In this document: positions 41,357-59,300 of the stretch, piece after piece
Numbering within the stretch: the first letter of the stretch is position 1
How the letters are laid out: each line of letters starts with the position of its first letter
Assembly: GCA_036556905.1 (NCBI GenBank)
Contig: DATBIM010000053.1
Coordinates: 63,118-127,117 of the forward strand
Length of the DNA stretch: 64,000 nt
Reading direction: 5' to 3'
Source: Candidatus Methylomirabilota bacterium
GTDB taxonomy: Bacteria > Methylomirabilota > Methylomirabilia > Rokubacteriales > CSP1-6
Program-made: the position numbers and the translations under genes
The notes under the pieces: model-generated
The model's input: the letters and a program-made list of their open reading frames with translations, nothing else
What the model was told of the DNA's origin: nothing
Databases searched by the model: none

Positions 41357-42043
41357 ATGGCCCAGAACGTCCTGGTGGTCGAGGACGAGACCGACATTCG
41401 CAACCTCGTCGTCTTCCACCTCGCCCGGGAGGGCTACCGATGCCGGACCGCCGCCACCGGCACCCAGGCATTGCAGGAGGTGCGGGGGCAGCTGCCCGAT
41501 CTCATCGTGCTCGACCTCATGCTGCCCGAGACGGATGGCCTCGAAGTGTGCCGACGGGTACGCGCCGATCCCGTTTCGGCGGCAGTGCCGATCATCATGC
41601 TGACGGCCAAGGCCGATGAGGTCGACCGCGTGGTGGGGCTGGAGATGGGCGCCGACGACTATCTGGTCAAGCCCTTCTCGCCCAAGGAACTCGTCGCGCG
41701 CGTGCGGGCCGTGCTGCGCCGGGCCCGCGTGACGGTTCCCACCCCCACGCTCCGCGTCGGGGCCCTCGTGCTGGACGCGGCCCGCCACACGGTCGCCGTC
41801 GAGGGCCGAGCCGTCGTCCTGACCCCCAAAGAGTTCGACCTGTTGCAGGCGCTCATGGAGGCCGCCGGTCGGGTACTCTCGCGCGAGCATCTGCTCGACC
41901 GGGTATGGGGGTACGCTCGGGCCGACGAGATCGAATCGCGGACGGTCGACGTCCACGTGCGCCGCCTGCGGGCCAAGCTCGGGGATGAGGGCCGGCGCAT
42001 CGCCACCGTGAAGGGTGTCGGCTACCGTCTGGAGGCGGAGTAG
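41357..42043 (+). CDS. OmpR/PhoB family response regulator
   Basis: VLVVEDE...LDLMLPETDG...KPF, and the winged helix TVDVHVRRLRAKL...VKGVGYRL. Confidence 0.9.
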   Translation: MAQNVLVVEDETDIRNLVVFHLAREGYRCRTAATGTQALQEVRGQLPDLIVLDLMLPETDGLEVCRRVRADPVSAAVPIIMLTAKADEVDRVVGLEMGADDYLVKPFSPKELVARVRAVLRRARVTVPTPTLRVGALVLDAARHTVAVEGRAVVLTPKEFDLLQALMEAAGRVLSREHLLDRVWGYARADEIESRTVDVHVRRLRAKLGDEGRRIATVKGVGYRLEAE

Positions 42044-42047
42044 TCCC

Positions 42048-43856
42048 GTGTCGGTGAGCCTGATTCATCTCCTTCGCAAGCGCATCGCGGTCAAGCTGAC
42101 GCTCACTCTCGTCGGGTTCGTGGCCATCGCGCTCCTGATCGCCGGCCTCTACTTCAACCGGACGCTGCAGCGCCTGGCCGTCGAGGGGCTGGAGGCCCGC
42201 CTGACGACCGCGGCCCAGCTCCTCCACGACGAGGTCCGGGCCCTGCTGGCGCGGACGGCGCCGCCCGAGGAGATCCAGGCCTTCGCGGTTCAGGCCGGGC
42301 AGGCCAGCGACTTCAGAGTCACCGTGATCACACCCGACGGCCGGGTGGTGGCGGACTCCCAGCTCCGGCTTCGCGATCTGGCCTGGGTGGACAACCACCG
42401 TGGTCGGCCTGAGGTGGAAGCCGCCCTGGCGGGTCGCCGGGGTCGCGACCTCCGTCGCAGCGCCACGATCGACTCGCCGCTGCTCTACGTGGCGGTGCCC
42501 ATCCGCGACGACGGACGGATCATGGGCGTGGTGAGGACCGCTCTTCCCCTCGGCGTCGTCACCTCATCGCACGCGGCGATCCACCGGGCGCTGCTGCTGG
42601 GCGGCCTGGTCGCCCTGGGCGTGGCCTTCGGGATCGGGCTCTTCGTCGCGCACCGGGTGACCCGCCCGGTGATTCAGATGCAGTCGGTGGCCCGGGCCAT
42701 GAGCGAGGAGGACTTTTCGGTCCGGGCGCCCATCCGCTCGCCCGACGAGATCGGCCAGCTCGGCCGGGCCCTGAACGTGATGGCGACGAGCCTGCAAGAC
42801 AAGCTCGAGGACCTCCAGCACGAGCGGGCCAAGACCGCGGCGATCCTCGACAGCATGGTCGAAGGGGTCATCGCCGTCGACGGGCAGGATCATCTTCTGC
42901 TCAGCAACGAACGGGCCCGCGTCATCCTGGGAGTCGGGCGGGGGCGGGAGGAGGGCAAGCCGTTCCTCGAGGTCGTCCGCAACGTGGATCTGCACGGGCT
43001 GTTGCGCCAGGCCCGGGCGACCGGCCAGGGGGTACTGACGACCCGGGAGTTCATCATGCCCGGGTTCATGGAGCGGCGCCTTCAAGTGAACGCGGTGCCG
43101 CTGCGTCTGGGCGCCGACGAGATCGGTGTCGTGATCGTGCTCCACGACGTCACCGAGCTCAGGCGTCTCGAGCAGGTCCGCACCGAGTTCATCGCCAACG
43201 TCTCCCACGAGCTGCGGACCCCGCTCACGGCCATCCAGGGGTATCTGGAGACGCTGCTCAGCGGGGCCCTCGAGGATCGGGCACATGCCCGCCGGTTTCT
43301 GGAGATCGTGGCCCGGCACACCGAGCGGCTGGGCCGGCTGCTGAACGATCTCACCGATCTCTCCAACATCGAGCTGGGAAAGGTCAGCCTGCGGATCGAG
43401 CCGACGGTGCTCGGCGAGGTCGTGGACTCCGTGATCGGAATCATCCGGCCCCGCGCCCACAGCGGCGGCGTCAGGCTGGAGGCGGCGCTGCCGCCCGACG
43501 TCCCACCGGTGAAGGCCGATCGCGACCGGCTGGCCCAGATCCTCATCAACCTCGTCGACAACGCCGTGAAGTACACGCCGGCCGGCGGTCAGGTGACCGT
43601 GACGGCTGACGTCACGCCGGGAGAAATGGTAGAGATCGCGGTGCGTGACACCGGCGTGGGGATCCCGGCCGCGGACCTGCCCCGGATCACCGAGCGTTTT
43701 TATCGGGTGGACAAGGCCCGCTCGCGCGAGCTCGGGGGTACCGGGCTCGGGCTGGCCATCGTCAAGCACCTCGTCATCGCGCACGCCGGGGAGCTTCGCA
43801 TCACCAGCGAGGTCGACAAGGGAACGATCGTCCGCTTCACACTCCCCGCCGCCTGA
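42048..43856 (+). CDS. PhoR-like sensor histidine kinase (TM, periplasmic domain, HAMP, PAS, HisKA, HATPase_c)
   Basis: GTG at 42048 follows GGAGGCGGAG. H-box SHELRTPLTAIQGY. DTGVGIP, GTGLGLAIVKH. Confidence 0.9.
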   Translation: MSVSLIHLLRKRIAVKLTLTLVGFVAIALLIAGLYFNRTLQRLAVEGLEARLTTAAQLLHDEVRALLARTAPPEEIQAFAVQAGQASDFRVTVITPDGRVVADSQLRLRDLAWVDNHRGRPEVEAALAGRRGRDLRRSATIDSPLLYVAVPIRDDGRIMGVVRTALPLGVVTSSHAAIHRALLLGGLVALGVAFGIGLFVAHRVTRPVIQMQSVARAMSEEDFSVRAPIRSPDEIGQLGRALNVMATSLQDKLEDLQHERAKTAAILDSMVEGVIAVDGQDHLLLSNERARVILGVGRGREEGKPFLEVVRNVDLHGLLRQARATGQGVLTTREFIMPGFMERRLQVNAVPLRLGADEIGVVIVLHDVTELRRLEQVRTEFIANVSHELRTPLTAIQGYLETLLSGALEDRAHARRFLEIVARHTERLGRLLNDLTDLSNIELGKVSLRIEPTVLGEVVDSVIGIIRPRAHSGGVRLEAALPPDVPPVKADRDRLAQILINLVDNAVKYTPAGGQVTVTADVTPGEMVEIAVRDTGVGIPAADLPRITERFYRVDKARSRELGGTGLGLAIVKHLVIAHAGELRITSEVDKGTIVRFTLPAA

Positions 43857-43902
43857 ATGGGGTAGACTCTGGCGGCGCGGACCCGACTGCGAGGAGGAGC
43901 CC

Positions 43903-44316
43903 ATGGGTGAGACGGTTAGCCTGGTGAACTACTACTACGTGATGGCCCCGGACCGACCCGGCGAGGCCTCCCGGATGCTCGACCATCTCAGGAAGGCCGG
44001 GGTCAACCTGCTGGCCTTCACGGGGTTCCCCAAGGGCAAGCAGGCCCAGCTCGATTTCGTGCCGGCTGACGCCGCGGCCTTCCAAGCCGCGGCCAGGCAG
44101 GCGAAGTGGAAGCTGACCGGCCCCAAGAAGGGCTTCCTGATCCAGGGTGACGACCGCATCGGCGCGGTGGCCGATCTGCTGGGCAAGCTGGCCGCCGCCA
44201 AGATCAACGTCACCGCCACCGACGCCCTCTGTGCCGGCAGCGGCCGCTACGCGGTCCTGCTCTGGGTCAAGCCGCGCGACGTCAAGCGCGCGGCCCAGGC
44301 GCTGGGTGCCGGCTGA
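43903..44316 (+). CDS. hypothetical protein with two ACT-like half-domains
   Basis: ATG follows GAGGAGGAG. The beta-alpha units YYVMAPDRPGEASRMLDHLRKAGVNLLAF and FLIQGDDRIGAVADLLGKLAAAKINVTAT resemble ACT units. Confidence 0.7.
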   Translation: MGETVSLVNYYYVMAPDRPGEASRMLDHLRKAGVNLLAFTGFPKGKQAQLDFVPADAAAFQAAARQAKWKLTGPKKGFLIQGDDRIGAVADLLGKLAAAKINVTATDALCAGSGRYAVLLWVKPRDVKRAAQALGAG

Positions 44317-44391: not shown

Positions 44392-44856
44392 TCACCAGCC
44401 GAAGAAGTCGCAGGCCCACGCGAAGCGTCCGATCCCCGCCAGCGCCGCTGCCTCCCGGTCCTTGTCGGAGTCACCGACGTGCAGGGACGCCGTCAGGTCC
44501 ACACCGTACCGGCGCGCCAGCTCGAGGAACATGCCGGGCTGGGGCTTGCGGCAGCGGCAGCCATCGGCGTCGACGTGAGGGCACACGCGCCAATCCGTGA
44601 AGGGTCGACCGAGCTGCTCGTTGGCCCAGACGAAGCGGCGTAAGACCTCCGCCTCGCTGATCTCGCGCCGCCCGATGCGCGCCTGGTTCGAGACGATGAA
44701 GCAGTGGTCGAAGCGGGACCGCTCCCGGGCCAGCACGGAGGCGACGCCAGGCATCAGGACCGGGTTGCCGGCGGCATCTACGACGGTTCGGTGGTCTCGG
44801 GCCCGGGCCAGGGTGCCGCCCCAATCGAGAAAGAGCGCCGGGGGCCCGGCTGTCAT
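44392..44856 (-). CDS. HAD-IIIA family phosphatase (GmhB/histidinol-phosphatase-like) with atypical motif I
   Basis: Motif I reads LFLDWGGTL rather than DxDGT. Zn-finger-like insert CPHVDADGCRCRKP, motif III KP..GM, motif IV VGDSDKD. ATGA overlaps the ATPase stop. Confidence 0.8.
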   Translation of the reverse strand: MTAGPPALFLDWGGTLARARDHRTVVDAAGNPVLMPGVASVLARERSRFDHCFIVSNQARIGRREISEAEVLRRFVWANEQLGRPFTDWRVCPHVDADGCRCRKPQPGMFLELARRYGVDLTASLHVGDSDKDREAAALAGIGRFAWACDFFGW

Positions 44857-47810
44857 CGGCCCCCCGCGGCCGCCGCCCCCTTCGGATGTTCTGGCTGGTG
44901 GCCCAGGCCGGCAATCGGGCCGGCGACGAGGGGCAGGGCGGCGCTGGCCGCTACCAGCGCCCAATCGCCAGGGCCGAGTGGCGTGAGACCCAGCAGGGCG
45001 CGCAAGGGGGGCACCGCCACCGCGGCGACCTGAAGGGCCAGGCTGCCGCCGATCACGGCGGCGAGCCGGGGGCTGCGATGAACGCCGGCCACTCCGGCGT
45101 CCGCGCTGGCCTGGCAGTTGAACGCGTGAACCAGTTGGGCAGCGGTCAGGGCGCAGAAGCCCACCGTTCCCGCCTGAGCGCCCGGCCCGTGGTGGGCCAG
45201 GGCCAGCGAGCGGGCACCGAGCGTCGACGCGGCCAGGACGGTCGCGTCTCTCGTGATGCCGCCCAGCGCGCTCCGGGAGAGCATCGTCGCGTAGGGCTCA
45301 CGCGGTGGCCGCGCCATGACATCGGGCCCGGGTGGCTCGACCGCGAGCGCGAGGGCGGGGAAGACATCGGAGAGGAGATTGATCCACAGGAGCTGGATGG
45401 CCGAGAGGGGGCGGGGACCGCCAACGGCGAGCGCGCCCAGCGTCACGAGGATTTCGCTGAAGTTGGTGGCCAGCAGATACCGGACGGACCGCTCGACGTT
45501 GTCGCGGATGCTCCGCCCTTGCTCGATGGCGTCTACGATGGCGCTGAAGTCGTCCTTGAGCAGCACGACATCGGCCACGTCGCGCGCCACATCCGTGCCT
45601 CGCTCGCCCATGGCCACGCCGACGACGGCCGCGCGCAGGGCGGCGGCATCGTTGATACCGTCGCCGGTCATCGCGACCACCTCACCCCCGGCCTGCAGGG
45701 CCTGCACGATCCGGTACTTGTGGGCGGGTGACACGCGGGCAAACACCTCGACCTCGCGGGCCAGCCCCAGCAGCTCCTCGCCGCTGAGGTCGGCGAGGGC
45801 GGAGGCCTCGGCCACCCGGACGTGGCCGTCGTGGCCGAGCCCGAGCTCCCGCGCGATGGCGGCCGCCGTGTGCGCCTGGTCGCCGGTGACCAGGACTGTC
45901 CGGATGCCCGCTCGCCGGCACGCCGCGATCGCCTCACGCACGCCCGTGCGCACGGGATCGGTCAGCGCCACCAGCGCAACCCACACCAGGTCGTCGTACG
46001 AGAGCTCCGCACCGGCCTCGACCTGCTTGTAGGCCAGCCCGAGGACGCGCATTCCACGGGCAGCGATGGCCGCGTTCGATTCCAGGATGTCGCGGCGTAT
46101 GTCGTCCGTGATCGGCTGCTCGAGGCCCGCCATCAGGCGGCGGCTGGCGTACCGCAGCACCTGCTCGGGAGCCCCTTTGACGGCGATGAGCCAGCGGGCC
46201 CCGTCGGCGTGAACTGTGGCCATCCAGCTGTCCCCGTCGTTCCGTGGGCGCACGGCGAGCAGGGGATAGCGACGGCGCAGGGCCAGATAGTCGAGGCCGG
46301 CCTGGACGGCCACGCGCAGGAGGGCTCCCTCCGTCGAGCTCCCCTGAACCTCCAGGCCGCCGTTGGCGAGGTCGGCCTCGTTACACAGGACCCCGACGGC
46401 GAGGGCGCGCATCAGGTCCTGGTCGGCGATGGCGATCCCGGCCAGGGGGGCGCGATACGACCGATCGGTCAACTGCCAGGAGTGCACCGACATGCGATTC
46501 TCGGTCACGGTGCCGGTCTTGTCGGCGCAGATCACGGTGGTGGCGCCCAGACTTTCCACCGTGGCCAGCCGGCGGACGATGGCCCCGCGCGCCATCATGC
46601 GGCGCATGCCGAGGGCCAAAGTCGTGGTGGCGACCGCGGGCAGCCCTTCCGGCACCGCCGCCACCGCCAGGGAGATCACCATCCGGGCCAGCTCGACCGC
46701 CGGCATGCCACGCAGCAGGCCGAGCACGAACGTGAGGCCGCAGAATCCCAGGGAGATGCCCACGAGCTGACGTCCCATGTGATCGAGCTGGCGTTCCAGC
46801 GGCGTCTGGGGGGCGGTGGACTCGGCCACCAGCGCCCTGACGCGGCCCAGCTCGGTGTGGCGGCCGGTGGCGGTGATGACGGCGAGCGCCGAGCCCTCGG
46901 CGACGAGGGTGCCAGCGAACACCATGTTTGTCCGCTCGGCGAGCGGGACCGGCCCCGGGCAGGCCGAGGCCGCCGCTTTGAGGACCGGTACGCTCTCACC
47001 GGTCAGTGACGCCTCGTCGACGGCCAGACCGTCGGTGTCCAGAAGGCGGGCGTCGGCGGGAACCTCGCTACCGGCTCTCAGGAGGATCACGTCGCCGGGC
47101 ACCAGGGCGGCGGCCGGCAGGGCGTGCTCTCGTCCGTCGCGACGGACCAGAGCCGGGGGGGCCCCGGCGGTCCGGAGCGATGTCAGGACACGTTCGACGC
47201 GACGCTCGGTGATGAAGCCAACCGTTGTGTTGATGCCCACGACGGCCAGGATCACAACGGCATCGATCAGGGCGCCGCTGAGCAGCGAGAGCATAGCAGC
47301 ACCGCCCAGAAGGAGGACGGGGAGCGTCGTCAGGTGACCGGCCACGATCGCTACCGCCGTCTTGGGCGTTGGTTCGGGCAACCCGTTGGCCCCGGACTCG
47401 GCCAGACGCACCGCGGCCTCGGTGCTCGACAATCCCTTCTCCGGCCTTGTGGCAAGCTGCTCGAGCACGGCGGGCACGGTCATCGCGTGCCAGGCCCCCT
47501 CCCTGGTCGGCCGCCCCGGCGCGAGCCCAGGGGGGATGCCCATCTCCGCACGGACGATCACGCCGGTAAGCGCCCGGAGGTCGAGCTGGCGGGGATCGAA
47601 GAGGACCAGGAGGTTGCCGGTGATGGTGCTGGCGCGGACTCGCTGAATGGCGCCGTGGGCGCCCAGGTGCTCGGTGAGCCGGGTGGCGACGTCGGAGCGG
47701 CCGCGCAGTCCTTCGACACGGAGGCGGGCACGCCCGGGCAACGCCACGAAGAGAGGGACTACACGAGGGGGGAGGGGTGAACCAGCGGGTACACGCAACG
47801 GCCGGCGCAC
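44853..47810 (-). CDS. P2-type cation-transporting P-type ATPase with N-terminal cysteine-less HMA-like domain
   Basis: LTGESVPV, ICADKTGTVTEN, TM4 VPEGLPAV, TGDQAHTA, MTGDGINDAAAL. The N-terminus reads LPGRARLRVEGLRG...ITGNLLVLFDP. The start is uncertain (GTG 47810, TTG 47798 or GTG 47747). The ORF part from 47811 to 48056 has low GC3 and is rejected. Confidence 0.9.
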   Translation of the reverse strand: MRRPLRVPAGSPLPPRVVPLFVALPGRARLRVEGLRGRSDVATRLTEHLGAHGAIQRVRASTITGNLLVLFDPRQLDLRALTGVIVRAEMGIPPGLAPGRPTREGAWHAMTVPAVLEQLATRPEKGLSSTEAAVRLAESGANGLPEPTPKTAVAIVAGHLTTLPVLLLGGAAMLSLLSGALIDAVVILAVVGINTTVGFITERRVERVLTSLRTAGAPPALVRRDGREHALPAAALVPGDVILLRAGSEVPADARLLDTDGLAVDEASLTGESVPVLKAAASACPGPVPLAERTNMVFAGTLVAEGSALAVITATGRHTELGRVRALVAESTAPQTPLERQLDHMGRQLVGISLGFCGLTFVLGLLRGMPAVELARMVISLAVAAVPEGLPAVATTTLALGMRRMMARGAIVRRLATVESLGATTVICADKTGTVTENRMSVHSWQLTDRSYRAPLAGIAIADQDLMRALAVGVLCNEADLANGGLEVQGSSTEGALLRVAVQAGLDYLALRRRYPLLAVRPRNDGDSWMATVHADGARWLIAVKGAPEQVLRYASRRLMAGLEQPITDDIRRDILESNAAIAARGMRVLGLAYKQVEAGAELSYDDLVWVALVALTDPVRTGVREAIAACRRAGIRTVLVTGDQAHTAAAIARELGLGHDGHVRVAEASALADLSGEELLGLAREVEVFARVSPAHKYRIVQALQAGGEVVAMTGDGINDAAALRAAVVGVAMGERGTDVARDVADVVLLKDDFSAIVDAIEQGRSIRDNVERSVRYLLATNFSEILVTLGALAVGGPRPLSAIQLLWINLLSDVFPALALAVEPPGPDVMARPPREPYATMLSRSALGGITRDATVLAASTLGARSLALAHHGPGAQAGTVGFCALTAAQLVHAFNCQASADAGVAGVHRSPRLAAVIGGSLALQVAAVAVPPLRALLGLTPLGPGDWALVAASAALPLVAGPIAGLGHQPEHPKGAAAAGGR

Positions 47811-47836
47811 GGAGGCGCCGGCGGGCCGCCGGCCGG

Positions 47837-47992
47837 CTAGCGGACGGGAGACTCCGTCGTTACGGGGCGGTTGGCGAAGCCGCGCTGTTCGAGGTACCGA
47901 TTCATCTCTGTCCCGAACAACCGATGCGCGGACGCCGCCCTGTCGAACACGATGTCCGCCAGAAGGACCACCATCCACTGGACGATCGCCAT
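47837..47992 (-). CDS. small protein between the two ATPase genes (hypothetical, 51 aa)
   Basis: The ATG at 47992 lies 7 nt after GGGAGGG. Sequence MAIVQWMVVLLADIVFDRAASAHRLFGTEMNRYLEQRGFANRPVTTESPVR. By hand count GC3 is about 86%, against about 55% for the overlapping ATPase-extension frame. Confidence 0.6.
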   Translation of the reverse strand: MAIVQWMVVLLADIVFDRAASAHRLFGTEMNRYLEQRGFANRPVTTESPVR

Positions 47993-48072
47993 CGGCCTGC
48001 CCTCCCTTCCCTGGTGGAGCACCCGACTTTCCGACTCCAGGGTACGGATCGAGCATGGCAGATCGATGACGA

Positions 48073-50196
48073 TTACCGAACGTTTTTGTGACGGCGACCC
48101 TGGTCGCCTGTCGGCCGGCCCTGGCGGCCGACGGCCGTCGCCAGGGCGGCCCCGACCGTCACGCCGTGGCTGATGAGGATGCTGGCCATGGGTCTGGCCA
48201 GGCCCAGGGAGGCCAGGCCGACGACGCCCAGGTTGGCGCCCGCCGCGATCTGCAGCGTGCGGCGGACGCCACCGATCGCCTCATGCGCCAGGTCCAGAGC
48301 CCGGACGACACGATCGAGCCCGCCGCTCAGGAGGACTACGTCGGCCGCCTCCGAGGCCACCTCCGCCCCGCCCGGGACCGCAATGCCCACGTCGGCTTCC
48401 TCGAGCGCGAGCGCGTCGTTCACACCATCGCCCACCATGGCGACCACCAGGCCCCGGCGGCGGAGTCGACGGATCAGGGCGGCCTTGTCTTCGGGCAGCA
48501 GCCCTGCGTAGTGATGGGGCAGCTTCAGGGTCTCGGCGATGACCCGACTGGGCTCGGGGTGATCGCCGGAGAGCAGGATGACGTCGCGCATACGGCGTGC
48601 CCGCAACGCCTCGACGGCGGTGCGGGCGTCCGGGCGGAGCTGATCGTGAAGCACCAGCAGCCCGGTGAGCCGATCGTCGACGGCGACGAAGGTGGTGGCG
48701 CCTCCCGCACGGTGCGCGGCGGCCTCATCGGTAGCGGCGCCCTCCAGGCTGACGCCGCGCTCGTTCATGAAGCGCCGGCTCCCCACGAGAACCTCGCGCT
48801 CACCCACGTTCAGAATGACGCCGAGACCCGCGCTCACCGCCGGGGCGGTCGATTTCGGAATGGTCAGGCGGCGCATGGTGGCGATGTGGGTGATGGCCCG
48901 CGCGATCGGGTGATGGAACCCGCGCTCGGCGGCGGCGGCCAGGCGAACCACCTCTTCCTCGTCGCGCGCCGGCCCGTAGGCCACCACCCGGCTCACCACG
49001 AGCGAACCGGACGTCAGCGTGCCGGTCTTGTCGAAGACGACCGTGTTGACCCGGGCCAGCGCCTCCAGGGCCCGCGGGCCCTTGATCAGAATGCCTTCTT
49101 CGGCCGCGCGGCGCAGGGACGTCACTACCACGGTCGGGATGCCGATCCGAGCGGCGGTTCCGTAGTCGGCGACCAGGATCGCCACGCCGGCGTCGACGCT
49201 GCGGGAGAGCGCCGCGCCGAGGCCGGCGAGGGTGAGCGTGCGCTTGACCTCACGGTCGGCCAGCGTCTCGGCGAAGACCTGGATGTCCGACTTCTGCCCC
49301 GCCGCGTCCTCGATGGCGCTGATGATCCGTCCCACCGCCGTGTCGAGTCCGACGCGGTCCACGCGCACGGCGATCTGGCCGTGCTCCACCCGGGTGGCTG
49401 CGAACACGGGGTCACCGACGTGGCGCTCCACCGGCATGGCCTCGCCGGTCATCGTCTGCTGGTTGACCAGCGCCTGGCCCTCGACGACCGTCCCGTCGAT
49501 CGGGAGCTGCTCGCCGGCGCCCAGGAGGATGACGTCACCGGCCCGCAGGGCGGTCACAGCCACCGCCCGCGCGGGATCGTCCGCGCGGCGGACGTGGCCC
49601 TTCCAGGAGGGCACCAGATCGCGGACAGAGCGGCGTGTGGTCACCACGCTGCGGGCCACGACAAGTTCTCCGAGTGCCCGCAGCCAGGTGAGCAGTGCCG
49701 CCGCCGTGAAGTTCCCGCGTAGCGCCAGGAGCGCCAACGTGGAGGCCTCCAGGACGTCGCCGTTGAGGCGCCGCCGTCCCAGGGCGCGCGCGGCGTGCGC
49801 CAGGGAGGGTAGCCCGGTGGCCAGGACCAGGCCTCCCAGCAGGGGAGCGGAGAGTGGCAGGAGGCTGAGCCCGAGCACGGCGCCAGTGCCGACGACGCTG
49901 AGCAGCGGGGCCTGGCGCGTCGTCAGGGGCTCCGGACGGCGCGCCGCCCCGGGCGCCGCCGAAGGGTCCAGCGCCCGCGTGAGTGCGTGCAGCTTCGTGA
50001 CGAGCGCAGTCTCGGCGACCCGGATGGGGTCGTAGTCGATCTGCACGCTGCCCGTCAACGGGCTGCCCTCGACCCGTCGGATGCCCGGCAGGGCCCGCAA
50101 CCCCGTCTCCACGTCCTTCCGACGCTCGAGCAGCCACCAGGGCGGGTAGCGGACACGGAGGCGCCCGCGCACCGCATGCGCGATGTGGTAGCGCAT
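48073..50196 (-). CDS. P1B-like P-type ATPase lacking the CPC metal motif, with N-terminal cysteine-less HMA-like domain
   Basis: MRYHIAHAVRGRLRVRY...LTGSVQIDYDP, TGEAMPV, VFDKTGTLT, SGDHPE, VGDGVNDALAL. The TM6 position of CPC reads ADYG (49159..49170). Confidence 0.9.
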   Translation of the reverse strand: MRYHIAHAVRGRLRVRYPPWWLLERRKDVETGLRALPGIRRVEGSPLTGSVQIDYDPIRVAETALVTKLHALTRALDPSAAPGAARRPEPLTTRQAPLLSVVGTGAVLGLSLLPLSAPLLGGLVLATGLPSLAHAARALGRRRLNGDVLEASTLALLALRGNFTAAALLTWLRALGELVVARSVVTTRRSVRDLVPSWKGHVRRADDPARAVAVTALRAGDVILLGAGEQLPIDGTVVEGQALVNQQTMTGEAMPVERHVGDPVFAATRVEHGQIAVRVDRVGLDTAVGRIISAIEDAAGQKSDIQVFAETLADREVKRTLTLAGLGAALSRSVDAGVAILVADYGTAARIGIPTVVVTSLRRAAEEGILIKGPRALEALARVNTVVFDKTGTLTSGSLVVSRVVAYGPARDEEEVVRLAAAAERGFHHPIARAITHIATMRRLTIPKSTAPAVSAGLGVILNVGEREVLVGSRRFMNERGVSLEGAATDEAAAHRAGGATTFVAVDDRLTGLLVLHDQLRPDARTAVEALRARRMRDVILLSGDHPEPSRVIAETLKLPHHYAGLLPEDKAALIRRLRRRGLVVAMVGDGVNDALALEEADVGIAVPGGAEVASEAADVVLLSGGLDRVVRALDLAHEAIGGVRRTLQIAAGANLGVVGLASLGLARPMASILISHGVTVGAALATAVGRQGRPTGDQGRRHKNVR

Positions 50197-50201
50197 CGCG
50201 C

Positions 50202-50708
50202 TCAGTCGGGGCCGGGTGTCAGGTTGTAGTCTCGGAAGAGCCCGTGGGCATACCACAGGGCCGTTGACCAGGGCAGCGCCCGCATCGGCCCCCGGGTGGC
50301 GTCGCGTATCGCCCACAGCGTGAGCGCGACGGGCACGAGCAAGCCCAGGGTCAGCGAGCCGCCCGTCGCGCGGGCTACCCGCCGGTTGAGCGACGCAAAG
50401 GTCTCGATCACCGCCCCGGCCACCACCGACGGGGCGCGCCCGCTGCCGTTCGTGGGGTGGGTCCTCACGACGGGAGCAAGATCCGTGTCGGCGTGAGTGG
50501 CGATGGACTCTACGAGGTCGTCGACGACGACCTCGTCAGGACGGTAGAGGGTCAGCAGGCTACGCGTCCGCGGCGACCAGCGACATGCCGCCACGCCGGG
50601 CAACCGGGAAACCGCGTCGGAGACACCCTCGGTTCTCGCCCCGGTGGGAAGACGGACGCGCAGGCGCCCGGGGATGTCGTGCAGGATCGCGAGCTGCGGC
50701 CGGTCCAT
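50202..50708 (-). CDS. HMA2-like domain protein with C-terminal TM segment
   Basis: ILHDIPGRLRVRLP...SRLPGVAACRWSPRTRSLLTLYRP (no CxxC). TM segment LTLGLLVPVALTLWAI. Its stop is 5 nt from the ATPase start. Confidence 0.7.
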   Translation of the reverse strand: MDRPQLAILHDIPGRLRVRLPTGARTEGVSDAVSRLPGVAACRWSPRTRSLLTLYRPDEVVVDDLVESIATHADTDLAPVVRTHPTNGSGRAPSVVAGAVIETFASLNRRVARATGGSLTLGLLVPVALTLWAIRDATRGPMRALPWSTALWYAHGLFRDYNLTPGPD

Positions 50709-50715
50709 GGGCTGC

Positions 50716-51054
50716 CTACGAGGCCTGGCGTCGGGCCGCCCCGTTGGCGCGTCGCCGACGGGCCGGAGCGGGCTCCGGCTCGGCCGCCGGCTCGGCACCG
50801 TTCGTTTCCGCACCGTTCAGCTCGGCGCCATTCATCTCGGCCGCCGCCAGCACCTGCTCCCGGCGCACCCGGGCTTCTGCGGCGATGTCCTCGAGGACCT
50901 CGATCTGCTCGGCGATGACGCGACGTGCCTCGTCGAAGAAACCCATGCCTGCGGCCGCCGCCTCGACCACCAGTGGACGAATGACGCGGGACAGGAGTGG
51001 CAGGGCGAACGCCGCTCCCAGCCCGATGATGAACGACGCCGGTTGGATGCGCAT
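50716..51054 (-). CDS. small membrane-anchored protein (DUF5132-like by recollection)
   Basis: N-terminal TM FIIGLGAAFALPLL, amphipathic helix EQIEVLEDIAAEARVRREQ, NGAE repeats, and a basic tail. Confidence 0.6.
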   Translation of the reverse strand: MRIQPASFIIGLGAAFALPLLSRVIRPLVVEAAAAGMGFFDEARRVIAEQIEVLEDIAAEARVRREQVLAAAEMNGAELNGAETNGAEPAAEPEPAPARRRRANGAARRQAS

Positions 51055-51056
51055 GG

Positions 51057-51584
51057 TCAGGCCGCCGCCTGCTCATCCTTGGCCCGGGCCCGCCGGCGCG
51101 TCCGCCGTGCCGCCGGTTGGGGCGGTTTTCGCAGATCGGTCGAGTGTGCTCGGGCCCGGGTCGTGGCCTCGCCGACGACACCCCGAACCGCGCGCGTCGC
51201 CGCCGAGGCGATCCGATCCGCGGCCTCGAGCGCGCCATCGGCGGCCTCGCTGGCCAGGCGTCCCACATCGCGCCCCACCTCGCGCCCGGCGGTGACCGCG
51301 CCGTTCACGACGTTCTTGGCCACCCGGCTCAGATCACCACTGATCTCCTCGGCGGCACGGATCGAGCCGCGAACGGCAACGACCGCCGTGGAGCCCAGCT
51401 CGCCGCCGATCTCCTGGATGCCACGGAGCGCCGAGACCACCGTGCCGGTCAGGACGTTCACCGCCCCGACCGACAGCGCTTCAACGCCGGCGAACGTCGA
51501 ACTGATGGCGTTGGGGATCCCGTCCGCGTCGAGCAATCCTCCTGAACGCCCGTTCATGCTTGGCTTCCTTGCTTTCCGTGCCAT
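51057..51584 (-). CDS. Ala/Gly/Val-rich helical repeat protein with basic termini (hypothetical)
   Basis: The ATG at 51584 lies 7 nt after AAGGAGG. Degenerate repeats follow (GAVNVLTGTVVSALRG..., VAVRGSIRAAEEISG..., VNGAVTAGREVGRDVG...). The C-terminal tail is RRTRRRARAKDEQAAA. Confidence 0.6.
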   Translation of the reverse strand: MARKARKPSMNGRSGGLLDADGIPNAISSTFAGVEALSVGAVNVLTGTVVSALRGIQEIGGELGSTAVVAVRGSIRAAEEISGDLSRVAKNVVNGAVTAGREVGRDVGRLASEAADGALEAADRIASAATRAVRGVVGEATTRARAHSTDLRKPPQPAARRTRRRARAKDEQAAA

Positions 51585-51616: not shown

Positions 51617-51634
51617 CGTAACATAAACGTAACA
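51617..51634. repeat. direct repeat CGTAACA-N4-CGTAACA (11-bp phase) upstream of the ATPase operon
   Basis: Copies at 51617..51623 and 51628..51634, 33-50 nt upstream of the ATG at 51584, in the divergent intergenic region. Confidence 0.3.
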
Positions 51635-51794: not shown

Positions 51795-52586
51795 GTGAAC
51801 GACGACACGTATCCGCGATTTCGTTGGCTGGAGCGCGGTGAGGGCGAGCCGGTGGTGTTCCTGCACGGCCTCATGGGTCACATGCACTTCTGGGATACGA
51901 CGCTCGACATCCTGAGCGGCGGGTGTCGGGCGCTCGCGCCGACGCTTCCCGTCTTCGATGAGGATCTTCCCGAGGTGTCCATTGCCGAGCTGGCCCGCTG
52001 GGTGGTGCGTTTCCTCGACGCACTCAATCTGGGACGCGTCGTCCTGGGTGGCAACTCGCTGGGCGGTCACGTCGCCCTGGCCACCACCCTGGTCTTTCCC
52101 ACCCGAGTCGCGGGACTCGTCCTCACCGGTTCGTCGGGTCTCTTCGAGCGGGGCTTCACCCGCGAGGGCTCGCACCGCCCGTCCAGTGAGTACGTGCGGC
52201 GGAAGATGGAAGACGTGTTCTACGATCGGCGCCTGGTGACGCCCAATTGGGTGGAGGCCGTCCGCGGCACCCTCACGAACCGGGCGACCGCGCTCCGGGT
52301 GCTGCGCTTCGCCCGGGCGGCCAAGCGTGACAACGTGGGGCACGACCTGGGAGTGATCGACGTGCCGACGCTGCTGGTGTGGGGCGCCGAGGATCGCATC
52401 ACGCCGCCGGCCGTCGCCGGGCGCTTCGCCGCGCTCATCCCGAGTTCCCGGCTGGTGTTTTTGCGGCGGTGTGGCCACGCGCCCATGCTGGAGCAGCCGG
52501 AGGCGTTCGGCGCCGTGGTGCGGGCCTGGCTGGAGGATATGGCCCTCATCGGGAGCGGCGCTCTCCCTGACCACGGGCTTCGATGA
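51795..52586 (+). CDS. alpha/beta hydrolase
   Basis: VVFLHGL, nucleophile elbow GNSLGG, and C-terminal CGHAPMLEQPE. GTG follows GAGGAGGA. Confidence 0.9.
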   Translation: MNDDTYPRFRWLERGEGEPVVFLHGLMGHMHFWDTTLDILSGGCRALAPTLPVFDEDLPEVSIAELARWVVRFLDALNLGRVVLGGNSLGGHVALATTLVFPTRVAGLVLTGSSGLFERGFTREGSHRPSSEYVRRKMEDVFYDRRLVTPNWVEAVRGTLTNRATALRVLRFARAAKRDNVGHDLGVIDVPTLLVWGAEDRITPPAVAGRFAALIPSSRLVFLRRCGHAPMLEQPEAFGAVVRAWLEDMALIGSGALPDHGLR

Positions 52587-55289: not shown

Positions 55290-57346
55290 CCGGAGGCGCG
55301 GAGGCCGCCGGCCAACTCGTACAGCCGTTCCTGGGAGCGGAGCGTGGGCGCGCCGTCGGCTCGGCGACGCTGGGAACTGCCCTCGGCGGTGATGATCCGC
55401 GCCTTCACCGTGTCAGCCAGCTGGATGGCCAGGATCTCGTCGATCTGGCGCTGCAGATCGGTGTCGAGGATCGGAAAGGCAATCTCGACCCGGTGATCGA
55501 AGTTGCGGGGCATCCAGTCCGCCGAGGCCAGCCAGTACTCGGGAATCCCGGCGTTGAGGAAGTAGAAGACCCGAGCGTGCTCCAGATACCGGTCGACGAT
55601 GGAGATGACCCGGATACGCTCGGAGAGGCCGGCCAGGCCCGGGCGCAGACAGCAGATCCCGCGGACGATGAGGTCGATCGTCACGCCGGCCTGGCTCGCC
55701 GCGTAGAGCTCGACGATGATCTCGGCGTCGACCAGGCTGTTCATCTTGGCCACGATGCGGGCGGGCCGCCCATTCCGCGCATGCTCGGCCTCACGGCGGA
55801 TGCGGGCCACCAGGCCCTCCCGCAGCGCGATCGGGGCCACCATCAGGTGGTGGAACAGGCGGGGGCGCGTGTAGCCGGTGAGCAGGTTGAAGAGCTCGGT
55901 GAGGTCCTCGCCAATCGTCTCCCGACAGGTCAGCAGCCCGAGATCGCTGTAGATGCCGCTCGTGCGGAGGTTGTAATTACCGGTGGCCAGGTGACAGTAA
56001 CGGCGGAGCCCATCATGCTCCTGCCGGACCACCAGGCAGGCTTTGCAGTGCGTCTTGTAGCCCACCAGCCCATAGACCACGTGCGCGCCGACCTCCTCCA
56101 GCGCCCGCGCCCATCGGATGTTCGCCTCCTCGTCGAAGCGCGCCTGCAGCTCGACGAGCACCGCGACCTCCTTGCCCTGCTCGGCGGCCAGGGTAAGCGC
56201 CTGGGCGATGGGCGAGGTCGGGCTCACCCGGTAGAGCGTCATCTTGATGGCGAGGACCTTGGGATCCAGGGCCGCCTCTCGGACGAAGCGGGTCACGACC
56301 TCGAAGGAGTGGTAGGGGTGGTGGATCAGGATGTCGCCGGCCCGGATGGCGCCCCAGATGTCGGGGGCGGCCTCGAGGGCGGGCAGGGGGTGGGGCGGCT
56401 GCGGGACATCCTTCAGCCGCGGCAGGTCCACCGCGGCGTAGAGCTGAAAGAGATCGGAGAAGGCCGTGAAGCCCTGACCGGCGAACAGATCGTCCCGGGT
56501 CAGCTCCAGCTCTTCCACGAGCGTGGCCAGGATGGCCGGCGGCAGATCGGGCTCGTACTGCAGGCGGACCGCGGTGCCCATGCGCCGTTCGCGCAGGCTC
56601 TCCTCCACGCTGGTGAGCAGACTGTCGGCCCGGGCCCGCGGGAGCTGCAGGTCGCCATCGCGGGTCACCCGAATGGCCTGGCAGGCCACGATCTGATAGC
56701 CGTGATAGAGCCGCGACAGGTGCAGCCGGATGACGTCCTCGAGGAGCATGAAGGCGTACTGCCCCGGCGGGGCCGGCACGGCCACGAACCGCGGCACCCC
56801 CGTGGGGATGTGGACCACGGCGAGGGTTGTGTGGGGCAAGGGCGAAGGCTCGGCCGGCTGCATCGACGCGACGAGGCAGAGGGCGCGATTGCCCAGGTGC
56901 GGGAAGGGATGGCCGGGATCGATGGCCAGCGGCGTCACCACGGGGAGCAGCGTCTGCCGAAAATACGTTTCCAGAAACTGCTCCTGTTCCGCGGTGAGGT
57001 CTTTGGCCCGAAGCAGGCTCACGCCCTCCAGGGCCAGCAGCGGCTGCAGCTCGTCGAGGAAGCAGCGGTGCTGCTCCTCCACCAGCGTGTGCACCCGGGC
57101 CGAGACGGCAGCCAGCGTCTCCGCTGGAGTGAGACCGTCGGGACCGGAGGCGGTCTCGCCGGCGTGGATCAGGCGCTTGAGAGAGGCCACCCGGACCATG
57201 AAGAACTCGTCGAGGTTCGCGCTGAAGATGGCCAGAAACTTCACCCGCTCGAGCAGCGGCACCCGGGGATCCTGGGCTTCTTCGAGGACCCGGCGGTTGA
57301 ACTCCAGCCAGGAGAGCTCGCGATTGACGAACTGCTCGCGACTCAT
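55286..57346 (-). CDS. ppk1: polyphosphate kinase 1
   Basis: FVNRELSWLEFNRRVLEEA...RVKFLAIFSANLDEFFMVRV, two PLD-like HKD regions, 686 aa. Confidence 0.95.
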   Translation of the reverse strand: MSREQFVNRELSWLEFNRRVLEEAQDPRVPLLERVKFLAIFSANLDEFFMVRVASLKRLIHAGETASGPDGLTPAETLAAVSARVHTLVEEQHRCFLDELQPLLALEGVSLLRAKDLTAEQEQFLETYFRQTLLPVVTPLAIDPGHPFPHLGNRALCLVASMQPAEPSPLPHTTLAVVHIPTGVPRFVAVPAPPGQYAFMLLEDVIRLHLSRLYHGYQIVACQAIRVTRDGDLQLPRARADSLLTSVEESLRERRMGTAVRLQYEPDLPPAILATLVEELELTRDDLFAGQGFTAFSDLFQLYAAVDLPRLKDVPQPPHPLPALEAAPDIWGAIRAGDILIHHPYHSFEVVTRFVREAALDPKVLAIKMTLYRVSPTSPIAQALTLAAEQGKEVAVLVELQARFDEEANIRWARALEEVGAHVVYGLVGYKTHCKACLVVRQEHDGLRRYCHLATGNYNLRTSGIYSDLGLLTCRETIGEDLTELFNLLTGYTRPRLFHHLMVAPIALREGLVARIRREAEHARNGRPARIVAKMNSLVDAEIIVELYAASQAGVTIDLIVRGICCLRPGLAGLSERIRVISIVDRYLEHARVFYFLNAGIPEYWLASADWMPRNFDHRVEIAFPILDTDLQRQIDEILAIQLADTVKARIITAEGSSQRRRADGAPTLRSQERLYELAGGLRASG

Positions 57347-58257
57347 GAGACGGGCGCTCGCCCCGCCGCGACCAGGAGCAGGCCGTCGCGGACGCCGCGC
57401 ATGCAGACGGTGAGGGCGGGATAGTCTCCGGAGAGCATCAGCTCCTCGACGATCAGCGCGCCGGCCACGATGATGTCGGCGCGCTCGGCCTTGAGGCCAG
57501 GCACCCGCCGCCGCTTGCGCAGGGGCAGGGCTTCGAGCCGGGCCCGGATCCGGGTGATGTCGTGCCGGCTGAGCCTGAGACCGTGACGCTCCCGGCGATG
57601 CCGACCGCTGAGGTGGATCGCCGCCAGGGCCCGCACGGTGCCGCCAAGCCCGACCAGGGTGGACCCCGGCTCCACGGGCGGTGACGCGGCGGCGAGCTGC
57701 TGACGGATCTCGTCGCGCAGCCTGGTGAGCTCTTGCCGGCGGGGCGGGTCATGGCGGAGAAAACGTCTCGTCGTGCGGACGACCCCCAGGGGGAAGCTGA
57801 CGGCGGCGTGGGGAAGGCCGTCCCGCACGTGGGTGAGCTGCAGGCTGCCCCCGCCGAGATCCATGACGACTCCGGCCCGGAAGCGCAGGCTCTCGAGCGC
57901 TGCCAGCGCCCCGAGGCGGGCTTCTTCGCAGCCGCTGAGCACGGCGACTTCCACACCGTGGCGGCGGCGTAGCGGCTCGAGCAGCCGATCCCGATTGCCC
58001 GCGTCGCGCACCGCCGAGGTCGCAATCGCCAGAACGCGGAGGGGCTGCCCGTTGCGCACCACGCGCAGGAAGCGGCGCACGGCGTCGAGCGTGTCGGCGA
58101 TCGCTTGCCGCGGCAAGCGGCCGGATCGGCCACCGCCGAGCCGGGTCTGGGCTCGCGCCTCGCGCAATATGCGTATGTGGCGGCCGGGACCGAGCTCGGC
58201 GAGCAGAAGCCGGACGGCGTTGGAGCCTAGGTCGACGAGCGCGACCTGCCCGGGCAT
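57343..58257 (-). CDS. ppx: Ppx/GppA family exopolyphosphatase
   Basis: VALVDLGSNAVRLLL, DLGGGS. ATGA overlaps ppk1. An alternative TTG start is at 58293. Confidence 0.9.
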   Translation of the reverse strand: MPGQVALVDLGSNAVRLLLAELGPGRHIRILREARAQTRLGGGRSGRLPRQAIADTLDAVRRFLRVVRNGQPLRVLAIATSAVRDAGNRDRLLEPLRRRHGVEVAVLSGCEEARLGALAALESLRFRAGVVMDLGGGSLQLTHVRDGLPHAAVSFPLGVVRTTRRFLRHDPPRRQELTRLRDEIRQQLAAASPPVEPGSTLVGLGGTVRALAAIHLSGRHRRERHGLRLSRHDITRIRARLEALPLRKRRRVPGLKAERADIIVAGALIVEELMLSGDYPALTVCMRGVRDGLLLVAAGRAPVS

Positions 58258-58317
58258 GCCCCTGAGTGTCGGAGCCGGCTCGGGGGCGGTCAAATCACAA
58301 AGCTGTTACAGCCTTGA

Positions 58318-58356
58318 TATCCACCGCTATCCACAGGCTTATGCGCAGCTATCCCC
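58318..58356. promoter_or_regulatory. phased direct repeats TATCCAC / TATCCAC / TATCCCC in the ppx-PHP divergent control region
   Basis: Copies start at 58318, 58328 and 58350 (offsets of 10 and 22 bp). They sit inside the most AT-rich intergenic stretch of the window (58294..58517). Confidence 0.35.
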
Positions 58357-58517
58357 AGCAACACAATATTTGCGGTGTCGTAATGCTGGAGTAACAAGAT
58401 ATTGTGGTACAGTGCCGCAGAATACAGCTCAAACGGATTGCGCGTTGAATAGCAAAGAGTTGGGTCCGGTGAATTGCGGTGGAGGACCGTGGAAAGAAGC
58501 ATGAGAGGAGGCGCCGG

Positions 58518-59300
58518 TTGAGGCGGATCGATACCCATACGCACCCCAAGATGTCCAAACACTTTCTCTTCGACTCCCGATCGCTCGATCGTATGGAACA
58601 GATGGCGCTCAAGATCGGGCTCGACGGCGTGGCGGTGACCGAGCACTTCCACGGCGTGGGCTTCTGGACGATCTACGATCACTTGCAGGCGACCCATCCG
58701 TACGAATACGGGTTGTTCTGGACGGGCCGACTGGCCTTGATCCCCGGGGCCGAGATCAACATCCGGGAAGGCGCCCACATCATCGTGCTCGGCGATGTGA
58801 GTGAGCTGCGTCGGCTCGACCGGGCGTTTCCGACTCCCCTGTCCCACGGCTATGAGCCAACGCTTCGGGAGTTTCTCGACGTCACCGACGACTTCGACGT
58901 CGTGCGGGTGGGCGCCCACATGTTTCGTCTCGGCAAAGAGCTGGGGAAATTCACCGCTGCCGACCTGCGGCGACTGCACGCGTTGGAGGTCAATGGCAAG
59001 GACTTCGGCACCGAAGTGATGTTGCTCGCCCAAGCGCGCGCCCTCGGCCTGCCCATCGTCGCGGGAAGCGACGCTCACCACTGGCTCCAGCTCGGCGTCC
59101 GCCACACACTCGTCCACACCGACGAGCTCACTCTGCGCTCCGTGCTCAAGGGAGTGAGAGAGGGCTTGACGGGGTTTGCGACGCGCCCCTATACTCCGCC
59201 CCGCGTCAAGGCCGCCAAGACCCTGAAAACTATTACGAAAATGTTACGAAAGTATTACGGCGGTCGCGCGGTGTCGGCAGCCACGTCGCTCGGCCGGTAG
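58518..59300 (+). CDS. PHP domain phosphoesterase
   Basis: The TTG at 58518 lies 6 nt after GAGAGGAGG. RIDTHTH metal motif, TEH, and GSDAHH. The ORF start GTG at 58479 is an alternative. Confidence 0.85.
   Translation: MRRIDTHTHPKMSKHFLFDSRSLDRMEQMALKIGLDGVAVTEHFHGVGFWTIYDHLQATHPYEYGLFWTGRLALIPGAEINIREGAHIIVLGDVSELRRLDRAFPTPLSHGYEPTLREFLDVTDDFDVVRVGAHMFRLGKELGKFTAADLRRLHALEVNGKDFGTEVMLLAQARALGLPIVAGSDAHHWLQLGVRHTLVHTDELTLRSVLKGVREGLTGFATRPYTPPRVKAAKTLKTITKMLRKYYGGRAVSAATSLGR

Follow-up and report, generated by a model that had tools for sequence, protein, structure and literature searches.

Why would a bacterium encode two P-type ATPases of different subfamilies side by side, together with a series of small membrane and repeat proteins? 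The question is raised by a minus-strand gene cluster in a 64,000-nucleotide (nt) stretch of contig DATBIM010000053.1 from the metagenome-assembled genome of a Rokubacteriales member of Candidatus Methylomirabilota (assembly GCA_036556905.1); this whole stretch is referred to below as the window. The genes carry working labels in their order of transcription, from position 51584 to 44392, as g1, g2, g3, g4, a 51-residue open reading frame (ORF), g5, and g6 (Table 1). We tentatively read the cluster as a phosphate-starvation (Pho)-induced platform in the cytoplasmic membrane whose two pumps would extrude divalent cations, a reading to which we assign somewhat less than an even chance. It draws on a conserved gene module, natural fusions of the two pumps, a promoter box found also at pstS, neighboring Pho genes, the calcium ligands of g5, the catalytic integrity of g4, and the precedent of PacL1.

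The window has a GC content of ~70%, and genes were called from third-position GC profiles combined with ribosome-binding sites. These calls bore out the seven minus-strand genes, and their order, proposed in an initial annotation of this DNA. From g1 to the 51-residue ORF the intergenic gaps measure 2, 7, 5, and 80 nt, the next one is 26 or 89 nt according to which start of g5 is used, and g5 and g6 overlap by 4 nt; the limit of 29 nt given originally was therefore inexact. The frame of this ORF is high in third-position GC where the overlapping long ATPase frame is low. A longer g5 reaching 48056 was discarded as an artefact, since its first 90 codons are low in third-position GC and the lengths of the orthologues disagree with it. 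A promoter and terminator scan disclosed no internal terminator and no sigma-70 consensus promoter within the operon.

A phylum-wide search of 251 Methylomirabilota species-level genomes, with g4 orthologues as the marker, recovered them in 23 genomes (9 of the 104 high-quality genomes and 11 of the 68 genera), all from two families; three relatives of the same genus, G003 among them, lacked one. Of the unpublished genomes G003 and G012, nothing beyond this absence from G003 enters the conclusions. We surveyed 20 of these loci together with flanks of as much as 9 kb, related genomes being non-independent samples. The genes g2-g3-g4-g5 were present at every surveyed locus with enough contig, one to three g1-like genes occurred at nearly all loci in co-directional, divergent, or downstream positions, and an ORF of ~50 residues was found in 12 of the 20 genomes. 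The same gene order recurred on four metagenome contigs, and together with the clusters of relatives these contigs confirmed a tightly packed unit that is syntenic elsewhere. The gene for g6, however, was absent at that position from all other clusters examined, its sole homologue seen (72% identity) lying ~5 kb downstream of the G121 cluster (L111, near 19464). The conserved unit thus comprises six genes, g1 to g5 plus the ~50-residue peptide, and g6 is a lineage-specific addition outside this core; of the seven-gene operon first proposed, the genes, their packing, and their order stood, with the HAD gene left outside the conserved unit.

An alignment-based scan of the species genomes for g4 had been dominated by the generic P-type pattern (two true orthologues among 80 loci), and the phylum-wide search was used instead. 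In-frame stops were seen within the g4 matches of G133, G142, G242, and G114. On a 1.4-Mb long-read contig (L019:10495-14774) the pump region was called as short genes with no or partial Pfam matches, and may be frameshifted or decayed.

The N-terminal modules of g3, g4, and g5 are mutually alignable around an invariant G-R-x-R-x-R motif. Against the HMA_2 profile (PF19991, cut-off 30 bits) they score 30.4, 21.8, and 35.6 bits, respectively; the g3 match spans the whole model, and many g4 orthologues carry PF19991 although g4 itself scores below the cut-off. We found 421 homologues of g3, whose invariant columns are H10, G14, R15, R17, and R19. Its AlphaFold2 (AF2) model, built with 39 homologues, displays the order beta0-beta1-alpha1-beta2-beta3-alpha2 at a domain pLDDT of ~95, with strands at residues 5-12 and 15-19 ahead of alpha-beta-beta-alpha. 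Three helices follow the domain, of which one is hydrophobic and the last carries a run of consecutive invariant residues. Comparison of this model with the PDB by Foldseek gave nothing at E <=1e-3; HMA domains dominated the weaker matches (MerP with a TM-score of 0.71, ATP7B, CopZ, and Menkes; E 2e-3 to 2e-2), with other ferredoxin-like folds mixed in.

The profile, the three-way alignment, and the model with its HMA matches agree with the initial proposal of a shared ferredoxin-like, HMA-like module on both ATPases and a stand-alone protein, and the hydrophobic helix after the domain agrees with its description of g3 as an HMA2-like plus transmembrane (TM) protein. The modules had also been called cysteine-less, which holds for the CxxC motif, absent from all three, but not to the letter, as the g3 module contains one cysteine. 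A member of the HMA superfamily distinguished by an additional beta0 strand, together with a conserved His and a patch of basic residues, was first described in calcyanin under the name CoBaHMA (PMC8890360) and has been equated with Pfam HMA_2 (bioRxiv 10.1101/2024.07.07.602159). The N-terminal module of g3, g4, and g5 is this published CoBaHMA domain, a name that the initial annotation had not given it.

Sequence features of g5 confirmed a P2-type ATPase with the PEGL motif and placed it near the P2A pumps. Among solved structures, Listeria LMCA1 and human SPCA1 come closest to it (E 1.6e-139); it lies below every NCBIfam equivalog cut-off, the best match being TIGR01522 (PMR1 type) with 583.1 bits against 798.3. 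TGES, PEGL, DKTGT, the Asn and Glu of TM5, and the Asn..Ser-Asp of TM6 are all retained in g5, five orthologues, and one paralogue, and each of these proteins has Gln at the position of SERCA Glu908. This set of residues suggests a calcium-type site, for which calcium or manganese would be possible. The full architecture and the ligands are common to g5 and the P2A calcium pumps LMCA1, SPCA1, and SERCA (PDB 9euq, 6zhf, 8iww, 1iwo). In contrast to these pumps, g5 has an N-terminal CoBaHMA domain, the Gln for Glu908, and an obligate pairing or fusion with a second pump.

A further module lies in the same genome outside the window (C39:11459-16341), where a 239-residue g1 paralogue, a phased box of the type described below, a CoBaHMA-P2 ATPase, and a MetK-like paralogue follow one another. 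This second pump has 982 residues and 54% identity to g5, and the start of the MetK-like gene overlaps its stop. No DUF5132, CoBaHMA-TM, or P1B-like gene is present in the C39 module.

The partner pump, g4, passes the P1B subfamily profile TIGR01525 (422.6 bits, cut-off 346.25). Its orthologues keep DKTGT, TGE, and GDGxND invariant; it is catalytically intact and predicted to be an active ATPase. In TM4 it reads ADYGTAAR (49170-49147), with Asp-Tyr-Gly aligned to the Cys-Pro-Cys of Legionella CopA. The alignment and the motif table revealed no Cys, His, or Met ligand in the CPx site, and no CxxC or His-rich N-terminal domain. Clade-wide invariants of the membrane site are limited to Asp344, Arg350, Asn655, and Ser672; since only Asp, Arg, Asn, and Ser are invariant there, the site would suit a proton or a hard cation better than a soft metal. 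Of the heavy-metal-type pump first annotated, the P1B profile is therefore upheld, but the metal type is doubtful, because the CPx ligands are all missing and g4 falls in a clade of its own.

Relatives of g4 were collected by a search of 1.8 billion representatives and then classified by motif. The g4 clade, which carries ADYG(T/L/M)AAR in TM4 and S/G-H/R-G in TM6, comprised only four representatives at 50% identity. Its sequence neighbors were 57 uncharacterised D(Y/F)GTGIR proteins, 34 P1B-6 proteins with D(Y/F)SCA and HN, and seven CPC/HN proteins, the last being of CtpC type going by the description in PMC9374683; an RxR motif is present in nearly all of these proteins. A FastTree phylogeny of 140-odd representatives recovered the g4 clade as monophyletic (support 1.0), while its position among the DYGTG, DYSCA, and CPC/HN groups received a support of 0.25. 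Judged by its motifs against the descriptions of FezB (P1B-6) and CtpC, g4 is predicted to be neither.

That the two pumps work as a pair is suggested by natural fusions. Five representative proteins of 1628-1706 residues, encoded by organisms with a GC content of 47% and 57%, join a CoBaHMA-P1B-like ATPase to a P2 ATPase and contain two DKTGT motifs each; their identity is 28-34% to g4 and 37-40% to g5. Their P2 halves keep most of the positions listed above for g5, the deviants being one TGEP for TGES, one Val for the Glu of TM5, and two cases of Glu-Ser for Asp, and the TM4 motifs of their P1B halves vary (SPA, CPS, CPA, APT, APA). The linkers are low-complexity basic or Pro stretches, which ruled out the 51-residue peptide as the linker. 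From these fusions, as Rosetta-stone evidence, and from the obligate co-occurrence of the two genes, we infer that the two pump types act together. Literature searches found no conserved operon or single polypeptide coupling two P-type ATPases of different subfamilies, and we know of no tandem P-type ATPase described previously. The initial remark that such a pairing is not a textbook system is thus upheld, and reinforced by the fusions.

The regulation of the cluster is indicated by a direct repeat of TGTTACG upstream of g1 (Table 1). Direct repeats of 7 bp at an 11-bp phase are the architecture of the Escherichia coli Pho box. Within the window, five matches to this box were found at up to two mismatches, against 0.29 expected; the 4.37-Mb genome holds six at up to one mismatch, and a reversed control none. 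These six comprise the box of this operon, two overlapping matches at a neighboring phosphate-linked kinase locus, one in the pstS promoter, one in 16S rRNA, attributed to chance, and one on C39, 33 nt upstream of the second CoBaHMA-P2 pump, so that four of the six fall in a Pho super-locus around this operon. The same phased repeat precedes g1 in G013, G112, and L020 and lies between divergent g1 and g2 in five more loci. Its reverse reading, CGTAACA-N4-CGTAACA, precedes g2 in G154, G165, G153, and G242 as well as pstS in G000 and G013, with a looser form at the pstS of G020. We regard the box as a candidate PhoB site (Pho box), where PhoB would bind and where the sign of regulation is likewise presumed.

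Boxes of this kind occur at two more places in the window. Three stand in tandem at the 11-bp phase at 59231-59258 (+), inside the 3' end of a PHP-domain gene (58479-59300) and upstream of the small genes of the neighboring phosphate-linked kinase locus. An AT-richer divergent region (58294-58530) between ppx (57343-58293, minus strand) and the PHP gene holds two weaker boxes at 58304-58320 (+) and 58380-58396 (-), along with several other short repeats.

The neighborhood points in the same direction. A PhoB-like response regulator and a PhoR/PnpS-like histidine kinase encoded close by (Table 1) are candidates for its control; in several genomes the cluster has a homologue of the kinase (65% identity) or of the regulator next to it, and a second PhoB-like regulator, also with TIGR02154 as its best hit, lies on the same contig directly before pstS (C53:127055-127825). 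The window further holds PhoU_div with a PHO4/Pit carrier, ppk1 with ppx ~4 kb from the cluster, and a PhoU-kinase locus, and the contig runs on into phoB-pstSCAB-phoU. Of the 21 genomes compared, 9 encode pst, phoB/R, phoD, or ppk-ppx no farther than 9 kb from the cluster, 2 more probably do so, and the arrangements differ. Another contig has a phn operon near the cluster and PhoX ~2 kb downstream, and one fused pump adjoins pstS-pstCAB-phoU in the organism of 47% GC. Such varied arrangements, together with this distant fused pump, make mere inheritance of the linkage unlikely. The operon seems to sit in, and to be wired to, the phosphate-starvation regulon, a setting that had escaped the initial annotation.

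One could still take the cluster for an ordinary metal or calcium resistance operon that hitch-hikes in an accessory island near phosphate genes, its repeat binding an unrelated regulator. A patchy occurrence in 23 of 251 genomes, with absence from three relatives of the same genus, would suit this explanation, as would the half of the clusters that lack a Pho neighbor and the fact that the box is connected to PhoB by sequence only. However, the linkage recurs in different forms (pst upstream, pst downstream, ppk-ppx, phoD, and phn with phoX) and extends to the distant 47% GC organism. The box is moreover common to the pstS promoters of three genomes, nearly all of its genome matches fall in phosphate loci or at these pumps, and no MerR, ArsR, or CsoR metal-sensor gene adjoined the cluster among the neighbor genes scanned. 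We consider simple resistance very improbable, and the least probable of the explanations weighed here.

The identity of some Pho neighbors suggested another role. PhoD and PhoX use calcium plus iron, and phoD directly adjoins g5 in G013 and G112; with the PhoX gene mentioned above, this would fit pumps that deliver calcium and a second metal to the periplasm for the metallation of PhoD and PhoX under phosphate starvation, much as a role in loading secreted metalloproteins has been proposed for CtpC-type pumps. That a calcium-type pump is paired with a pump related to the iron-linked P1B-6 group, and that both are apparently controlled by Pho, is also in line with such a supply of cofactors. 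Most clusters, however, have neither PhoD nor PhoX nearby, g4 lacks the Cys or His ligands expected of an Fe2+ or Mn2+ site, periplasmic calcium normally equilibrates with the medium, and g1, g2, and g3 would be left unexplained. We therefore hold this role to be quite improbable.

The small proteins were, for the most part, found to be as first described. The protein g1 is Ala/Gly/Val-rich, with Arg-rich N- and C-terminal tails around a near-neutral core, and repeats with a 22-residue period, an acidic-Gly motif recurring at residues 49, 71, and 93; the original description as an Ala/Gly/Val repeat protein with basic ends was accurate. It has no Pfam or NCBIfam match, and the 53 proteins of its family are every one named hypothetical. 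The AF2 model consists of three long helices (pLDDT 67), and its likenesses are weak and serve as leads only: chlorosome CsmC in a language-model search (0.76), and phasin and LEA proteins in a shape search (TM-scores 0.41-0.66). The g2 protein, correctly annotated as a small TM plus amphipathic-helix protein, begins with a TM helix and continues through an amphipathic helix rich in Glu and Ala and an acidic linker to a basic C-terminus, and the orthologue alignment shows G11 and A15 of the TM helix to be invariant in a GxxxA pattern. It scores 23.5 bits against DUF5132 (cut-off 25), and six of seven orthologues match that family. The g6 protein matches the HAD-IIIA profile (TIGR01662, 64.2 bits, cut-off 44.6), but its motif I reads D-W-G and misses the second Asp of the catalytic DxD.

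On four other contigs an ORF of 49-51 residues is annotated at the position of the 51-residue peptide, and alignment of the peptides displays a short hydrophobic N-terminus with an invariant Asp, followed by a helix. Prediction of its complex with g4 gave an ipSAE of 0.56 against 0.00 for the best control, with at least 75% of contacts agreeing between runs and a partner pLDDT of at least 68. In calibration, 58 of 80 solved complexes attained this mark, as did 2 of 110 mismatched pairs; the band up to 0.60 held 7 of the 80 solved complexes and both passing mismatched pairs, and the tool grades such a value as weak support. The model thus hints that the peptide may be a pump-bound micropeptide on g4. 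Micropeptides are known partners of P-type ATPases: sarcolipin and phospholamban with SERCA, KdpF with KdpB, and MgtS with MgtA. Like these, the peptide is very small, hydrophobic, and encoded with a pump; unlike them, it has no sequence similarity to the known examples, and its hydrophobic stretch is short and contains the invariant Asp.

A precedent for small proteins around a pump comes from Mycobacterium tuberculosis, where PacL1 (a TM helix with Glu/Ala repeats) acts as a scaffold for CtpC, a P1B-6-like pump, in efflux platforms at the plasma membrane (Boudehen et al. 2022, PMC9374683); CtpC, too, carries an R-rich motif (bioRxiv 10.1101/2020.01.10.902569). The likeness to our cluster, a one-TM protein with a Glu/Ala-rich cytoplasmic helix encoded with an R-rich P1B ATPase, is one of architecture and not of sequence. 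None of the seven g2 orthologues matches DUF1490 or DUF6110, even when E values as high as 1 are allowed, and g2 was therefore ruled out as a PacL protein; it also differs from PacL1 in being DUF5132-like and in having no C-terminal metal-binding motif. The g4 pump differs from CtpC in lacking CPC and HN, and PacL modules contain one pump and neither a CoBaHMA-TM nor a repeat protein. By analogy with the Fez and PacL proteins, the role of scaffold or regulator initially suggested for the small proteins is plausible.

Taken as an extrusion platform, the cluster could operate as follows. Under low phosphate, a PhoR/PhoB-type system would bind the TGTTAC/GTAACA repeat and switch on the operon together with pstS, as the boxes and the neighborhood suggest. 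Pump g5 would then export calcium, and possibly manganese, given its conserved SERCA/LMCA1 ligands, while g4, whose site would offer Asp, Asn, and Ser along with a buried Arg, would move a second hard cation, a proton, or a counter-ion beside it, as co-occurrence and fusions imply. By analogy, the basic CoBaHMA domains of g3, g4, and g5 might dock on acidic lipids or polyphosphate and, with g2 and g1, gather the pumps into clusters and control them in the way that PacL1 acts on CtpC; the 51-residue peptide might bind g4, as the computed complex hints. Pit-type carriers import neutral metal-phosphate complexes. The need served could be the removal of calcium or other divalent cations that enter as metal-phosphate, accompany the dissolution of mineral phosphate, or are freed by polyphosphate hydrolysis.

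MetK-like genes follow g5 in four clusters (G038, G243, G195, and G196). The cluster-associated proteins (L105 from G038, and L106 from C39 of G000) are extra paralogues when compared with the housekeeping L107 and L108. They keep the triphosphate-binding motifs, whereas the DEQS segment is replaced and the GAGDQG loop altered or deleted, regions that we take to be the methionine-binding parts of E. coli MetK. This pattern suggests that the paralogues have lost methionine binding and might have a tripolyphosphatase-like role.

These paralogues, along with ppk-ppx adjoining the cluster in G242 and G243 and lying close to it here, would also agree with a different destination for the cations, namely an intracellular, ferrosome- or acidocalcisome-like body enclosed by a membrane, in which calcium, another divalent cation, or the two together would be stored along with phosphate or polyphosphate. 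The two pumps would then face the lumen, and g1, g2, and g3 would shape, coat, or organise the membrane, for which the long helices, basic tails, and weak phasin- and LEA-like shape matches of g1 could be taken as a sign. Pho control would prime the banking of phosphate at resupply, just as fez is induced by iron starvation and ferrosomes appear when iron returns.

The closest gene-set parallel for such a body is fez, which is induced by iron starvation and in which GxxxG proteins accompany FezB (a P1B-6 ATPase whose N-terminus is R-rich) and FezC (an R-rich HMA protein with two TM helices); some fez clusters add FezH, a further P1B ATPase (Grant et al., bioRxiv 10.1101/2020.01.10.902569). Ferrosomes are reported to hold their iron as a phosphate mineral (bioRxiv 10.64898/2026.06.16.732667). 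Our cluster resembles fez in the RxRxR module on a P1B-family ATPase, in a separate FezC-like R-rich HMA-plus-TM protein, in the presence of a second ATPase, which fez has at times, and, if box and neighbors are read correctly, in induction by starvation for the stored nutrient. FezA, a small hydrophobic Gxxx(G/A) protein, may have a parallel in the GxxxA helix of g2, which belongs to a DUF5132-like family. Unlike fez, the cluster has ADYGTAAR instead of D(Y/F)SCA in TM4 and S-H-G-x-T instead of HNxxT in TM6 of g4, a second pump of P2A calcium type instead of P1B, phosphate instead of iron genes as neighbors, and an additional 22-residue-repeat protein and 51-residue peptide, and it is known so far as a set of genes. 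With g4 failing the P1B-6 motifs and the context being phosphate and not iron, the cluster was ruled out as fez.

A second parallel comes from Microcystis, which makes intracellular calcium carbonate and in which DUF5132 and CoBaHMA-hairpin genes flank the calcyanin gene (ccyA) and a Ca2+/H+ exchanger, with which they are co-expressed (bioRxiv 10.1101/2024.07.07.602159). The CoBaHMA fold, DUF5132, and a CoBaHMA-helical-hairpin protein beside a calcium transporter are thus shared with the calcyanin neighborhood (Benzerara et al. 2022, PMC8890360), whereas no calcyanin or GlyZip protein was seen in our cluster, its transporter is an ATP-driven pump and not an exchanger, and phylum and regulation differ. 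Acidocalcisomes (PMC4263762), which combine pumps for calcium and other cations with phosphate and polyphosphate metabolism, offer an analogy of function to what is here a list of genes.

A storage body nevertheless appears unlikely to us. Besides the failure of g4 to show the P1B-6 signature, there is no iron or Fur context, as no Fur, Feo, or ferritin gene was seen in the scanned cluster neighborhoods; the likeness to Fez and calcyanin rests on descriptions and not on sequence comparison; and no report describes an inclusion in these uncultured bacteria. The characterised bacterial P2A calcium pumps sit at the cell membrane and export across it, which agrees better with extrusion.

The extrusion platform, which we continue to prefer, has to contend with several observations. 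The organisms are uncultured, and the reading rests on their genes. Four accessory proteins exceed the needs of any known efflux pump, and among them is a soluble helical-repeat protein, coat-like in character, of which each cluster has one to three copies; the nearest gene-set parallels, fez and the calcyanin neighborhood, are those of intracellular mineral bodies. The box reads one way before g1 and the other way before g2 and pstS, which would fit activation, repression, or control by another regulator alike. Roughly half of the surveyed clusters lack Pho genes over the 9 kb on either side, g2 falls outside the DUF1490 or DUF6110 (PacL) type, and the cargo of g4 could be a hard cation, a proton, or a counter-ion. 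Literature searches returned neither a Pho-regulated bacterial P-type calcium pump nor a Rokubacteria granule.

Table 1. Coordinates of the cluster genes, the promoter box, bordering and regulatory genes (positions in the window), and of the fused pumps (own contig numbers).
Feature	Position	Strand	Description
g1	51057-51584 (51557 is the start preferred by other gene callers)	-	helical-repeat protein, 166-175 residues
g2	50716-51054	-	DUF5132-like, TM plus amphipathic helix
g3	50202-50708	-	stand-alone CoBaHMA domain plus helices
g4	48073-50196	-	CoBaHMA-P1B-like ATPase, 707 residues
51-residue ORF	47837-47992	-	strong Shine-Dalgarno; high third-position GC in its own frame
g5	44853-47747 (other start 47810)	-	CoBaHMA-P2A ATPase, ~964 residues
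g6	44392-44856	-	HAD-IIIA phosphatase-like; start overlaps g5 stop (ATGA)
promoter box	51618-51634	-	direct repeat TGTTACG, 4-bp A/T spacer, 11-bp phase; 33-50 nt before the g1 ATG at 51584
divergent hydrolase gene	51795-52586	+	upstream border of the cluster
ACT-domain gene	43645-44316	+	convergent; downstream border of the cluster
PhoB-like response regulator	41357-42043	+	best NCBIfam match TIGR02154 PhoB, 264 bits (cut-off 296)
PhoR/PnpS-like HAMP-PAS histidine kinase	42015-43856	+	best hits PnpS/PhoR/WalK-type models
fusion proteins P0267, P0270, P0278, P0315, P0344	L022:7632-12680; L023:8001-12932		CoBaHMA-P1B-like::P2 ATPase fusions

The operon shares its architecture with fez, PacL modules, and the calcyanin neighborhood, and it fails the defining sequence tests of fez and PacL. 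It is distinguished by the coupling of two pumps from separate subfamilies, by a pump clade that is new, by a candidate micropeptide, and by an apparent wiring to phosphate rather than to iron or zinc. The natural fusions of ~1650 residues are a ready target for structural work on pump-pump coupling, and the apparent Pho-box wiring provides a first testable clue for CoBaHMA, DUF5132, and the cysteine-less relatives of the P1B-6 ATPases. If a storage body were true after all, it would be a new bacterial organelle, the equivalent of a ferrosome for phosphate, filled by two physically coupled P-type pumps, with CoBaHMA, DUF5132, and repeat-coat proteins as organisers; it would explain the membrane enclosure of calcium-phosphate or polyphosphate granules and give a genetic handle on acidocalcisome-like granules of bacteria. 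For the Rokubacteria, an abundant uncultured phylum of soils, the cluster would link the handling of divalent cations to phosphate starvation, and thereby to the cycling of soil phosphorus.

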